Shown: positions 53,934 to 61,885, counted from the first letter of the stretch. The stretch is 64,000 bases of DNA from an uncultured Parachlamydiaceae bacterium (GCA_963742415.1 CAVULX010000004.1:992001-1056000); one strand, 5' to 3'. Notes: generated by a model from the sequence alone, not told the origin. Numbers and translations: made by a program.

Positions 53934-56900
53934 ATGAATACAAATACAAATTACCATAAAAATACATTCATTTATTCACCTTATGAATTATTAGATGAAT
54001 ACGTTGAAAAATTCATTTATTCCGCAAAAGAATTTGATTTTGCTTCTGAGGATTATCTCGCGTCTAATAAATCATTTATTTATTTGGGAAAAAAAAGAGA
54101 TTCTCTAAAAACCAGCCTTCAAGACGTTATCAATAAATTGGATGTTGTTCAGAGACACGCAAAGACAACCTTTAAAACCACAAAAAGGCTCATGGCAGGC
54201 AAAACTCCCAATGAAATTGCAACCTTATACGGCGAGCTCGGTCAAATTCACAGCATATTCAATGACATCGTCAACAAAATGAAATACCTAAAAAGCTATG
54301 AGTCCAATAAAAACGGCGTGCAAAATCAAACTAAAATAATCGATGAAAAAATGTGGCTCGCTTCAAAAGCATTATTAAAAATGTCGGAAGCTCTTAAGTC
54401 TTCGGAGTCAAAACTCCAGAGCGAAGATGGAAATACCCAAACCAATCCCCCCATTCCCCGCTTTGACAAATGGATCGCCGAGCAAACCAAAACCGATTCA
54501 ACCAAAGAAGAAATTTATCAAGATCTATACAGAATCATTCAAAATTACTTTTTAAAAAATAATACACTAAGTAAAGCCGACATCGTTTTCTTGCAACAGG
54601 TCATCAAGAGAACTTACGAATTTGGCAAACTGAATGCCCCGCTCAAAGTTGACAAAAGTCAAATGGAGGAATTCAGAGCTTTTCTACAAAATGTAATCGA
54701 CGATATTAAGCTCACTATACACCGGAAAAAAGCTTTATTAAAAGAACTGAACGATGAAATAAAAAACCGTCAAAATCTAACAGAGCAAGAGATCCTCAAA
54801 TATACAATCCTCTATCGTCAATTCATGATGAATCCGTTCGATATCCCTGTAAGCGTAGATACTGATTTTGTATGCGAACCCTTTCGCAACATGATCGAGC
54901 ACCTCCCAAGAATAAACTACAGCCAGCAAACTTTAGAATACAAGACCGAAGGGCTAAAAAAAATTCGGGCTTATTACGAAAAAAATAAAGATCTATATCC
55001 AAAGCATAATATCTTAATTTCCGGGGCAGGTCCTAGTGGTTTAATCTTAGCGCTCGTTTGTGCCATGCGAGCTCAAGGATTTCAAATCATTGAAACACGC
55101 AGCTCAAGCGATCCTATGCGAAGTAATATTATAGCGCTGGGTAAAGAAGGCATTTCTAGCCGGTTAAAAACACTAGGTGCACTAGAACCGACTGGCCCCT
55201 ATTCCCATGACGATATCAAAATTTTAGACTTTTTTGGGATTACTGATTTATTAGATCTTGAATATAAGGCTTTATATGATATTGGAACAGGTCTTAACGT
55301 TACAATTATGGACCTGCAAAAAGCGGCTCTAGAACAAATAAATGAAATCAGCAAGGATGAGGAAGATCGCATTAGTCGCCCTTTCATTTATTATAACACT
55401 GAAATAGGAGCGATCACTCGTCAAAACGAAAATGATCCCGTGTTAATTAAGCTTAAAACATCTCCGCGGGTTGGGGCCGGTAGCGGCTTTGAAGGGGCAA
55501 TCGAACCTACTTTAGTTTATGTCACAGAAGGTTATCACTCTGCAACGAGAAAATTGCTCGGCATCAATGTCGTTAAACAAACCAAACCTACGAGATTTGC
55601 TTTCTCCCTTTTAGAAAAAGCCACCCCTTCTCCAGGCCACTCCAAAAAGTTGGATCAATCGATAACAAGTTTGAATATCTCACTGCGAGGAACAGCTGCA
55701 GCTATAAATTTCTTTGTCCATCATAAGATTGAAAAAGAAAATATAAGTTTTGCCCAAAGAAGAGGGGAACTGAATTTAAAAACCTTTGAATCGACCTACT
55801 TTTATACAACGTTGACACCCGAAGAACAAAAAGATAGAGCCAAGCTCGATAGGGATTTAAAAATCGTTGAAAACGAACGGAATGAATTAGAACTCTCCCT
55901 CCATAACTATTTAATTAACAACAAGGAACTAATCATAGAAAAAGACAAACTGGGAGATTTAATCGGGAAACTCTCTACAAAAGACAGGCGAAAAAAATGG
56001 CGCCAAGATAAAAATGAAGTGGAGCAGTTTTTTCAAAATGCCTTTGAGATTGTCCGAGGGTTGCCTGCCAAAGAAGAAAAAGCAAACGAACTTATCCGTC
56101 TTAAAGAACTTAATTCTAAAATAGGAGTTTTAAATCAAACCATCTCAGAACCTATAAAACAGATGACAGTTGTCGGTAAGTCTAAGTGGGATTTAATTGA
56201 TAGCTGGGATCTAAAGGAACGCCCTAACTTCACTCCGATGAAACTCATCCAAACTCAAATGGCGTATGCTCAAATTCAAACTATCCCAAATAACTATCGA
56301 CGTTTAGAACAAACGCTGTTTTGTATCACCGGCGACGCAGAGTGCACAACGGACCCCCTCTCGGGCGCCGGAATGCGCACATCGATTTTGAGGACAGTAT
56401 CTGCGTCTGAGTTGGGCTCTACTCAATCGAATAAAAATGGCTTTATGGCATCTGCATTTCAATGGTCTAGCCAGTTAGCGTCTAAGCGGATGAGGGAAGA
56501 AGGGCTGCATATCCGTACCTATTATCAACCAGGCACAGAACGGTTAGAGAGATATACTGAAATCGCTAAAGAGATAAATGTGATCTCCGAAAAAGAAGAG
56601 CGGTTTTTGCTTAGAATGCAAACCAAAGCTAAAATGATGCAAAGCGACCCTCGATTGAATTTTACAAGACAGCAACAGGAATCTCTAAATGCACTGCAAA
56701 ATACTTTAAGAGAAACTTATTTGAAAAGCATCTCATCTGATAGAGCCTTGATCAAATTCCTGCCATCCAAGGCAATCGAAATTTTTAGGAGCAATTTGGT
56801 ATCACCGAATTCTCGTGATCCACGCAGCAAACAATGGATTGCTGGTTTAAAAAATGGGAATAAAAGCACTTACGATGGTCTTATTTCTAGGTTAAAACTC

Positions 56901-60900: not shown

Positions 60901-61885
60901 ATATGCTCAAGTTCAAACCGTTTCAAATAACTATCGCTGCATGAGAGAGACGCTCTTTTGCATCACTGGCGACGCAGAATGCACAACAGACCCTGCCTCC
61001 GGTGCCGGAATGCGCACATCCCTTTTGAGGACAGTATCTGCATCTGTTTTAGGCTCTGCCTTGTCAAATAAAAATGGGTTTATGGCATCTGCATTTCAAT
61101 GGTCTAGCCGGTTAGCGTCTAAGCGGATGAGGGAAGAAGGACTCTACATCCGTACCTATTATCAAACAGGTACAGAACGGTTGGAGAGGTATACTGAAAT
61201 CGCTAAAGAGGTCAACGTGATCTCCGAAAAAGAAGAGCGGTTTTTACTTAGGATGCAAGCGAAGGCTAAAATGGCGCGAAGCGACCCTCGATTGAATTTT
61301 ACGGAAAAAGAACTCAAATCTCTCAGTTCTTTGCAAGATACTTTAAGGGAAACCTATTCGAGGAGCATGCCTACTAACGCTGCCCTTGTCTCACTGAAGC
61401 CCTCCAATGCCATTACAATTGTTAGAGACAATTTGGCATCTCTTCCGATTGCAGAGCTGAAAGATGTGAAAAATCAAGCCTTTATTAACCTAAATTATCG
61501 GTTAGGCTTATATTTCCATCTTCCTTACTTGGAAAGAAAAATGGTGGTGCGCTTAGCCAAAATTGTGGCTGCAGACCCTAAGCTAGAAAATGAAAAGAAT
61601 TACAGAATATTTAAAAAGAACATAGAAGCAATCCTTTTTAAAATACCGCCTGAATTGCGTTTTAATGCTGATGAATCTGAGACTTTTAAAAAAGCTTGGA
61701 AAACAGCAGTTTTGAAAGAAGAAAACAAATTTTCTGATGAAGAACTGACGCTACTAGCAAGCGTCAATTCAAAAGTCGCCTCACGCTTTCACTCGGTTTC
61801 GGATAATATGCTTAATACCCATCTTTCTGACGCTTGGTTTATTCCCCTCTTCTTTGCCATCGAACAGATGAAGCAACATCCCTAA
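57983..61885 (+). CDS. Giant FAD-dependent monooxygenase-domain protein, paralog 2
   Basis: Colinear with 53934..57269; same three FAD fingerprints; roughly 190 extra aa in the N-terminal third. Confidence 0.85.
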   Translation: MNTNYSYNKNTIIYSPYELVNEYVGKFINSAKEFAFASEDYLASGKNFIPLEKERDSLTVTLQEVINKLNEVQSHAKITFKATKRLMSGKTPDEIATLYDELGQIHSIFSDIINTMKSIRSYEKSNKNDKHQTKLIEEKLFLGSKVLLKMSEALKTSESKLKKEDGNIQTIPRFDKWIEKQAVGDPVQNPIYQELYRIIQSYFLRNNPINATDLPLLHRMHLGTFSEGELKSLDPLSEFEAIFSVAKTLKRYVYLRLINLRPQQLNPIGSSLDKDSAFFLLKVKLFLESDLFPHIELTEDSFWNDDIIPLIKPYLNMDTNEFVHLMNQHLRENAPNEKEIPTDFDLITALNCRFIIQEGIEWKEYVSQFPKSKEAALAALDFLEKTGMDPSKVNQIKNFFDHLSLDHPSRDLFLPDFCLWEHKYSALNIDKSQILEFRSFIRSLIEDIRLTFHRQKTLLEELNEEVKNCQDLGEEEVLKYTIHYRQFIMNPFDIPVKLDISFVCEPLLKIINQPPSMNYSKKTLQYKIEGLKKIRAYYEKNKNLYPQHSILISGAGPSGLTLALVYAVQAQRFQILETRSMHDPMRNNIIVLGKENYSGRLKTLGALEPTGPYPHDDIKILDFFGVTDRLIDGNKALYEKNVGLNVKIMDLQKAALEQINEITRNEGEEDRLLIYYNTEIESITPQNEKEPVLIKFKTSPRVEPGRGFEGTLEPTLVHVTEGYQTTTRKLLGIDVIKQSKPMRFVYSLFEEVKPSTNYEALNQSLTNLNGFLCGAASTANVLAQSWMDKIFNNAGGNQHLFDFLGRAELKLWTPESAYFYATLTQKEQKAVAKLEMHVKIAENERNELERSLYDCLFENQELIIDKDKLDDLLHKLSLKDRRKKWHQDKKEVKQFFQNALEIVQELPAQKEKTNELIRLKRLNSTIKNLNQEIGKLTKEMAIFYQSRWDMLISLLQKQPFKFKPMQHIQTQMTYAQVQTVSNNYRCMRETLFCITGDAECTTDPASGAGMRTSLLRTVSASVLGSALSNKNGFMASAFQWSSRLASKRMREEGLYIRTYYQTGTERLERYTEIAKEVNVISEKEERFLLRMQAKAKMARSDPRLNFTEKELKSLSSLQDTLRETYSRSMPTNAALVSLKPSNAITIVRDNLASLPIAELKDVKNQAFINLNYRLGLYFHLPYLERKMVVRLAKIVAADPKLENEKNYRIFKKNIEAILFKIPPELRFNADESETFKKAWKTAVLKEENKFSDEELTLLASVNSKVASRFHSVSDNMLNTHLSDAWFIPLFFAIEQMKQHP

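Follow-up and report, generated by a model that had tools for sequence, protein, structure and literature searches.

Tandem giant proteins of an uncultured Parachlamydiaceae bacterium with a highly diverged class A flavoprotein monooxygenase core: candidate host-directed enzymes

To our knowledge, class A flavoprotein monooxygenases are almost always small-molecule enzymes of ~400-600 amino acids (aa), and the members known to act on proteins are MICAL and QhpG. In these enzymes NAD(P)H reduces the flavin adenine dinucleotide (FAD), and a C4a-hydroperoxide then oxygenates the substrate or decays to H2O2. QhpG is presented in PMC7876137 as a class A monooxygenase that acts on a protein substrate. 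Among chlamydiae, a transposon mutant of the Chlamydia trachomatis gene for CT148, a protein of 507 aa, is reported to grow slightly better in culture and to be attenuated in mice (PMC6686042); the mutant is also mentioned in PMC10337758, and a computational survey of type III secretion candidates includes CT148 at a low score (PMC2668754). Here we describe two adjoining genes, A and B, found in a 64,000-nucleotide (nt) stretch of DNA (the window) from an uncultured Parachlamydiaceae bacterium (GCA_963742415.1, CAVULX010000004.1:992001-1056000). Their products, of 1111 and 1300 aa, constitute a new architectural variant of the class A flavoprotein monooxygenases. A full-text literature search turned up neither proteins of this kind nor a bacterial effector resembling MICAL.

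A class A core within a helical architecture

The structure of A was modelled with AlphaFold from an alignment of 88 sequences, with no templates, and the insertion was located in B by pairwise mapping to A. The full-length prediction has a mean local distance difference test score (pLDDT) of 87.1 and a predicted template-modelling score (pTM) of 0.87; a second model, limited to the core (aa 330-900, 101 sequences), reached values of 91.6 and 0.90. In these models the core has the two-lobed fold of p-hydroxybenzoate hydroxylase (PHBH), and A as a whole is predicted to form one compact body in which the core sits within a large helical architecture. The core opens with a helix (331-350), followed by a Rossmann beta-alpha-beta unit (360-387) and by a strand (399-402) placed just after R396-S-N398; the strands of the FAD domain run to an EG motif at 527-533. 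The substrate domain contributes a strand (553-562), a helix (569-599) and two further strands (612-616 and 620-626, the latter carrying Tyr622), at which point the chain departs into a helical insertion made of two long helices, 629-662 (34 residues) and 713-759 (47 residues), with three short ones between them. This insertion is full length only in the long clades of the family described below (occupancy 0.26-0.48), clade III having a shorter version. The N-terminal domain is built on helices 16-46, 56-87, 92-124, 130-167 and 241-276, of which the first four are 31-38 residues long, and is preceded by a disordered stretch (residues 1-11, pLDDT < 50). It found no match in Pfam, no match in a PDB search and no usable match in the Atlas search. 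At the other end, helices continue to residue 1109; several structural alignments with canonical enzymes extend to model residues 1082-1092, and residues of the C-terminal domain may thus be equivalent to residues of those enzymes, the alignments being available as ranges only. The initial annotation had described N-terminal helical sequence, a coiled-coil insertion and a long C-terminal tail around the core; in the model of A, all three are helical.

Comparison of the core model with 48,161 representatives in a wide structure search gave 284 matches with a similarity score (Z) of at least 8. HspB came first (Z 24.4, 306 aligned residues, root-mean-square deviation (rmsd) 3.5), followed by TedJ (23.9), Tet(55) (23.4) and KMO (22.8); UbiH (22.5) was tied with many others, and a PHBH-type enzyme and QhpG scored 21.9 and 18.6, respectively. 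When Foldseek matches were re-ranked for the core, PqsL stood first (Z 24.1) and 989 of the 1000 aligned chains had Z >= 8, whereas with the full-length model the entries from PqsL (20.2) through MICAL (19.5-19.7) were tied. Profile searches of the PDB agree with this picture, their best matches being phenol 2-monooxygenase and PHBH; a search with the single sequence of A gave 0 matches at E <= 10. In the Atlas search the nearest clusters to the core were generic FAD_binding_3 proteins, with MICAL-type clusters at ranks 12 and 23.

Curated family models hardly register either protein. No curated Pfam family matched A or B above threshold, PF01494 was not listed at E <= 0.1, and a search of the organism's own genome with PF01494 at E <= 10 did not list them. 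The NCBIfam model of the Ubi-OHases (TIGR01988) matched A with 22.0 bits (E 6e-5) and B with 17.6 bits, against a cut-off of 224.65, and the QhpG model matched over the GD region with 19.3 bits (E 4.4e-4; cut-off 240). A match of A to Hormone_recep (E 4.5e-4, 20.2 bits, cut-off 23.5) falls on a helical stretch and was set aside as spurious. The homology of A and B to the PF01494 superfamily is therefore transitive and not direct, since only their relatives pass the PF01494 model. All of a set of 20 relatives did so at E <= 0.01, as did 26 of a set of 28 at E <= 0.001; the two others (an alcohol dehydrogenase and an outer-membrane protein) we take to be false positives of the profile search. 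The link between the clades is supplied by hhalign, which joined the long clade I, to which A and B belong, with the short clade III at a probability of 99.96% (E 5.7e-39, 431 columns). Taken with the predicted fold, these data support the placement of A and B in a highly diverged branch of the class A (PHBH-fold, FAD_binding_3 superfamily) flavoprotein monooxygenases.

The three fingerprints of the class, which the initial annotation had noticed in both proteins, are indeed present, and their conservation was followed in an alignment of 88 family members. The glycines G364, G366 and G369 of the GxGxxG motif are 94-97% conserved; E387, R389, R396 and N398 are conserved at 93-95% (N398 at 93%), G533 of the DG-type motif at 98%, G800, D801, P808 and G813 of the GD region at 90-95%, and Tyr622 in the substrate domain at 92%. 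The acidic residue that ends beta2 in class A enzymes is also found, as the model runs from strand 360-363 through helix 367-378 to strand 383-387 and closes on E387. The DG motif takes the form EG (E532-G533 within VTEGYHSATRKLLGI), Glu standing for Asp throughout clade I, and aligns to the stretch 'aDGahS.vRk.LGi' of solved enzymes, just as the GD stretch GDAECTTDPLSGAGMR aligns to GDAaHtvpPtGakG of PHBH. Both regions, 'EG..S.TR.LLGI' and 'GDA..T.DP..G.G', conform to a PHBH-type pattern, down to a Pro seven residues beyond the start of the GD motif (GD+7) that is 90% conserved, as in PHBH. With 93-98% conservation and a confirmed fold, the motifs are not there by chance. The catalytic core is intact: it has the FAD-binding beta-alpha-beta unit and the Glu that ends beta2, both the DG-type motif and the GD motif, and the conserved Arg and Asn. 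The WxWxIP motif of flavin-dependent halogenases was not found in A or B.

One could suppose instead that the flavoprotein fold has been kept as a structural or binding module, a pseudoenzyme, within a large helical protein that interacts with the host. Extreme divergence, to the point that no curated family is matched at threshold, would fit such a non-catalytic scaffold, as would the replacement of the Asp in the DG motif and the fact that over half of each protein consists of helical extensions or insertion (in A about 690 aa out of 1111, and in B still more). However, conservation within the family is highest (93-98%) at just those residues that contact FAD and NADPH in relatives, the ratio of nonsynonymous to synonymous substitution rates (dN/dS) is lowest in the GD region, and the exchange of Glu for Asp is both conservative and invariant in clade I. 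We consider this the least probable of the readings discussed here.

More weight attaches to the possibility that A and B are oversized class A monooxygenases at work inside the bacterium on a small molecule or lipid, such as a quinone, an aromatic compound or an isoprenoid, with the helical domains serving oligomerisation or membrane association. The best structural matches, from HspB down to UbiH, are all small-molecule enzymes; the top PDB profile matches, the faint similarity to the Ubi-OHases and the PHBH-type pattern of the DG and GD regions point in the same direction. Yet scores such as 22 bits lie far under the curated cut-offs, no operon or conserved neighbour indicates a pathway, the family is missing from most Chlamydiota genomes searched, and ~560-750 aa of extra helical sequence together with a dN/dS of 0.34 would be unusual for a metabolic hydroxylase. 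Such an intrabacterial role strikes us as unlikely, if by no means negligible.

Relationship to MICAL

The specific link to MICAL that the initial annotation had proposed is not supported, but some of the resemblance behind it is real. The stretch in question is present in A and had been quoted in compressed form: ETR, six further residues and R-S-N-I-I-A-L occupy positions 387-402, LKTLGA lies at 411-416 and IMDLQ at 458-462. Its first part is a genuine family feature, as the consensus I-E-K-R-(6)-R-x-N-x-V-x-L aligns with the matching stretch of MICAL3 and N398 falls opposite the Asn of the latter. In PMC3645671, Asn123 of mouse MICAL1 is described as hydrogen-bonded to flavin N5, and two basic positions of MICAL, the Lys/Arg that follows the Glu and the Arg that precedes the Asn, are placed in a putative NADPH site. 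This Asn is absent from the PHBH-type and phenol-hydroxylase sequences displayed. LKTLGA, by contrast, is not a family-wide element. It falls in a loop (403-425) that is restricted to the closest relatives, is a gap in 15 of the 21 sequences of one alignment (A3), and has no regular secondary structure and reduced pLDDT in the model; across the family it is LDFFG (431-435) that corresponds to the usual 'L..lG' helix.

In the structural comparisons, MICAL alignments include helix 331-350 (from residues 328-330 of the full-length model and from residue 1 of the core model onward), which most other matches omit. As in A, helical regions precede the core in MICAL, and a helical element follows the pair of substrate-domain strands. 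MICAL-1 was the first Foldseek match for the core, with an E value of 1.5e-13 against 1.9e-13 for the next entry, and ranked 2 for the full-length model; margins this negligible carry no weight. In the wide search, MICAL3 (Z 21.6) and MICAL1 (Z 21.5) occupied ranks 15 and 16, with 318-320 aligned residues and an rmsd of 3.1-3.3, and MICAL was not among the 50 entries listed when the Foldseek matches of the core were re-ranked. The closest structures are small-molecule hydroxylases, with which MICAL ties or below which it falls by ~3 Z units. Going by the order of the structural elements, Tyr622 may correspond to MICAL Tyr293, which hydrogen-bonds flavin O4; residues 545-640 are too weakly conserved for a reference-based alignment of this segment.

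Family models and the loop after the GD strand tell against a specific MICAL link. The Rossman_Mical model (PF25413) had no match on A or B, either in the Pfam scan at E <= 0.1 or at E <= 10, and was not listed for 28 relatives at E <= 0.001 or for 20 relatives at E <= 0.01; HMMER matches to MICAL span only the first ~65 residues of the core. The loop after the GD strand of MICAL reads F399-W400-P401, its Trp being described as stacking on the isoalloxazine ring (PMC3645671), whereas neither A (800-815) nor B (996-1011) has a Trp in this loop. By residue numbers in published work, W400 would map to GD+7, the position of the Pro that the family shares with PHBH. Finally, there was no Pfam match to CH, LIM or bMERB domains at E <= 0.1, in a scan that was not accompanied by separate fold searches for the N- and C-terminal domains.

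These results bear on the most specific form of the proposal, namely that A and B are analogues of MICAL which, once secreted, would bind F-actin, oxidise its methionines and show F-actin-stimulated NADPH oxidation. The EKR/R-x-N stretch with its counterpart of MICAL1 Asn123 (PMC3645671), the Foldseek ranking, the aligned helix before the Rossmann strand and the similar disposition of helical regions can be cited in favour. They are offset by a Z value well short of the 24.4 of the leading match, by the missing PF25413, CH, LIM and bMERB signatures, by the Pro in place of Trp and by the confinement of LKTLGA to a clade-specific loop, and we judge the proposal very improbable. By structure, MICAL is a relative of the modelled core at no smaller distance than many others.

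Family, genome setting and possible function

A profile built from four sequences (A, B and two foreign relatives) was compared with 1.84 billion representatives and recovered 125 at E <= 1e-3, 69 at <= 1e-10 and 36 at <= 1e-30. A word-indexed homolog search yielded only 2 foreign relatives, and a search for related loci in genome contigs returned 87 pattern matches and 1 confirmed locus, in a metagenome-assembled genome of Parachlamydiales. All genome matches of the family lay within Chlamydiota in the searches made, and the ten representatives looked up were without exception singleton metagenome proteins, unnamed or called 'hypothetical protein'. From these genome matches and the Parachlamydiales locus, we take the organism to be an environmental chlamydia. 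In a FastTree phylogeny of 84 of the 88 aligned sequences (four with <60% occupancy were dropped; midpoint-rooted, support values not read), clade I holds long proteins of 950-1276 aa and contains A and B as sister tips, clade II long proteins of about 750-980 aa, and clade III short proteins of 430-500 aa.

The distribution is patchy. Among 401 Chlamydiota genomes, the clade I profile matched 41 at E <= 1e-3, in many cases through the GxGxxG stretch only, and 13 at E <= 1e-13, of which five, including the genome of the window, reached E <= 1e-80. The clade III profile matched 21 of 400 genomes at E <= 1e-20 and had no match at that level in the genome of the window, where 4 of 14 candidates were scored. 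Three sizeable Chlamydiota families (0/23, 0/29-30 and 0/35 genomes) gave no match to either profile. In four other genomes the neighbours of the homologs were unrelated housekeeping genes that differed from one genome to the next.

Within the genome of the window (2.69 Mb in 4 contigs), the clade I profile found A and B alone at E <= 0.01. As the initial annotation had it, they are colinear paralogs with AT-rich leaders: the two proteins are 65% identical across 889 + 236 aligned residues, and the leaders, at 9.1% and 11.5% GC, stand out from a window average of 41.6%. The genes themselves have a GC content of 38%, against 42% in the rest of the window. A stretch of 78 nt recurs in both leaders with 81% identity, so the duplication took in the promoter region along with the gene. 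A Nei-Gojobori comparison of A with B (1095 codons) gave a dN/dS of 0.34, with a minimum of 0.18 around the GD motif; both copies are under purifying but relaxed selection. We infer a recent tandem duplication within a small family found, where searched, only in Chlamydiota. The features of the region are collected in Table 1.

Table 1. Features of the A-B region, numbered from the first nucleotide of the window
Feature	Position	Strand	Remarks
Eukaryote-type kinase gene adjoining A upstream	49927..53709	+	1260 aa; Pkinase aa 390-611, Pfam E 1.3e-19
Leader of gene A, AT-rich	53780..53933	+	154 nt, 9.1% GC; promoter-region box common with gene B
Gene A	53934..57269	+	1111-aa open reading frame (ORF)
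A all-helical N-terminal domain, aa 1-330	53934..54923	+	AlphaFold model
A core part 1, aa 331-628	54924..55817	+	Helix 331-350, beta-alpha-beta, EG strand, first substrate-domain strands
A GxGxxG motif (GAGPSG), aa 364-369	55023..55040	+	
A ETRSSSDPMRSNIIAL, aa 387-402	55092..55139	+	Aligned to matching MICAL3 stretch
A DG-type motif (EGYHSATR), aa 532-539	55527..55550	+	Glu for Asp
A helical insertion in substrate domain, aa 629-760	55818..56213	+	Model
A core part 2, aa 761-880	56214..56573	+	Strands 769-798, GD motif, helices 812-864
A GD motif GDAECTTDPLSGAGMR, aa 800-815	56331..56378	+	
A all-helical C-terminal domain, aa 881-1111	56574..57266	+	Model; helices to residue 1109
Intergenic A-B region	57270..57982	.	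Two long inverted repeats, terminator-like hairpin, leader of B
106-nt inverted repeat, A-B spacer	57321-57426 / 57497-57602 (arms)	.	87% complementary, 70 nt apart
Terminator-like hairpin 3' of gene A	57345-57357	.	Consensus scan
46-nt inverted repeat, A-B spacer	57763-57808 / 57820-57865 (arms)	.	
Leader of gene B, AT-rich	57870-57982	.	113 nt, 11.5% GC
Gene B	57983..61885	+	1300-aa ORF, architecture as gene A
B-only segment in N-terminal domain, about aa 231-426	58673..59260	+	~196 aa, absent from A
B GxGxxG motif (GAGPSG), aa 554-559	59642..59659	+	
B DG-type motif (EGYQTTTR), aa 721-728	60143..60166	+	
B helical insertion, aa 825-956	60455..60850	+	Counterpart of A 629-760; pairwise mapping
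B GD motif GDAECTTDPASGAGMR, aa 996-1011	60968..61015	+	
Terminator-like hairpin 3' of gene B	61925..61967	+	20-bp stem; consensus scan

The segment present in B alone returned only B when searched among longer proteins, and Pfam had no match for B. The inverted repeats of the spacer may represent an element resembling a miniature inverted-repeat transposable element, or a palindromic one, inserted after the duplication. A hairpin with a T-run follows the upstream kinase gene, gene A and gene B, so that the three look like separate transcription units; the consensus scan by itself counts no more terminator-like sites here than shuffled sequence would give. The upstream kinase has a PQ- and E-rich N-terminal part of low complexity and ~650 further residues that belong to no family, and looks like another candidate host-directed protein.

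We read A and B, tentatively and with slightly less than even confidence, as accessory host-directed class A monooxygenases. They would be FAD-binding enzymes that consume NAD(P)H and O2. In MICAL and PHBH, the counterpart of the EKR/R-x-N stretch borders the NADPH site and flavin N5. They would probably be exported through the chlamydial type III system and, in the host, would oxygenate a macromolecular or membrane-bound substrate or make H2O2 locally, the helical domains providing targeting or regulation. It is in the substrate domain that the family leaves the canon, which speaks for a substrate of another kind than the solved enzymes take. Neither protein has a signal peptide or transmembrane segment, the strand of the GxGxxG motif being the only hydrophobic segment, and in a set of 15 full-length proteins of clade I the N-terminus is rich in S/T/N/Q (38% versus 23%) and poor in K/R (4.7% versus 14.7%). 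The absence of a signal peptide, the varying neighbours, the patchy distribution and the adjacent giant kinase would weakly fit a secreted effector; the polar, K/R-poor and disordered N-termini, the paralog expansion, the lower GC content and the presence of a SctV homolog in the genome are likewise, and no more strongly, compatible with a host-directed role.

Several observations weigh against this reading. A and B remain below threshold for every curated family in Pfam and NCBIfam, and what can be said of the FAD pocket, and of how open the active site is, comes from motifs only. The argument from N-terminal composition is weak. The closest structures are small-molecule hydroxylases, and a substrate within the bacterial cell, be it a small molecule or a lipid, would fit the fold equally well; patchy distribution and varying neighbours, for their part, also fit dispensable metabolic genes.

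One could go further and envision that A, B and ~35 long relatives are type III-secreted into protist hosts, with a host protein (actin or some other component of the cytoskeleton or of trafficking) or a host membrane lipid as the target of oxidation. These proteins would then parallel MICAL in function while having an independent origin from a PHBH-type hydroxylase, and the coiled-coil insertion and the helical domains would act in targeting and autoinhibition. This fuller scenario is improbable in our estimation.

The genome offers some further observations. It carries two FHIPEP genes (SctV/FlhA-type), and the window contains a gene for a methyl-accepting chemotaxis protein (HAMP + MCPsignal, 10649-12727, (+)); together they hint at chemosensory or flagellar remnants. 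Such remnants are on record for some environmental chlamydiae. A MurC-Ddl fusion lies within a cell-wall and division cluster, murG-ftsW-murD-mraY-murF, that looks complete and has a gene for a LysM protein in its midst (31849-34260 and 34269-41270, both (-)), and a second LysM protein is encoded just downstream of gene B (62036-63349, (-)). In the gene for a GTP-type phosphoenolpyruvate carboxykinase (63318-63999, (-)), the expected peptide shifts frame twice, so that some 60-80 nt (around 63590-63680) take in three frames; this is either a pseudogene or the result of assembly errors, the latter bearing on assembly quality. An orphan 441-aa FAD_binding_3-like ORF with an atypical GD region lies ~35 kb beyond the window (L023, on G000:C4; 877-2202 (-) in L023 numbering). 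Neither L023 nor another such ORF, L024 (399 aa), was retained as a family member, the R-x-N motif being absent by eye.

Comparison with known systems

Versions of 750-1300 aa were found only in chlamydiae and, if secreted, would represent a new enzymatic class of host-directed factor; interest would be high should both export and a host macromolecular substrate prove true. If the proteins act inside the bacterium, they still form an undescribed and very diverged branch of a well-studied superfamily. The present Pfam and NCBIfam models miss this branch.

With the class A enzymes HspB, PqsL, PHBH, KMO and the Tet(X)-type destructases, A and B share the predicted two-lobed fold (Z 22-24 over ~290-320 residues, rmsd 3-4 Å) and the GxGxxG, DG-type and GD motifs in the same canonical order. 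They differ in having only 9-17% identity to solved structures and a Glu for the Asp of the DG motif, in the addition of a helical insertion of ~130 aa between substrate-domain strands and of terminal helical domains of 330-520 aa and ~230 aa, and in belonging to a family confined, in the searches made, to Chlamydiota. The likeness to CT148, compared by description only, is that it too is an orphan chlamydial FAD-dependent monooxygenase.

The monooxygenase domain of MICAL (PDB 2BRY, 2C4C, 4TXI, 6ICI, 9EWY) likewise has a PHBH-fold core, set in a large multidomain protein with helical regions around it, and its helix before the Rossmann strand finds an aligned equivalent in A. MICAL is eukaryotic, whereas A and B are bacterial and have a DG region of PHBH-type sequence. 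QhpG, a peptidyl-tryptophan dihydroxylase (PDB 7CTQ), has the class A fold and, in the structural comparison, stands below the small-molecule hydroxylases; A and B have no qhp gene context. QhpG shows that in bacteria the class A fold can act on the side chains of proteins.

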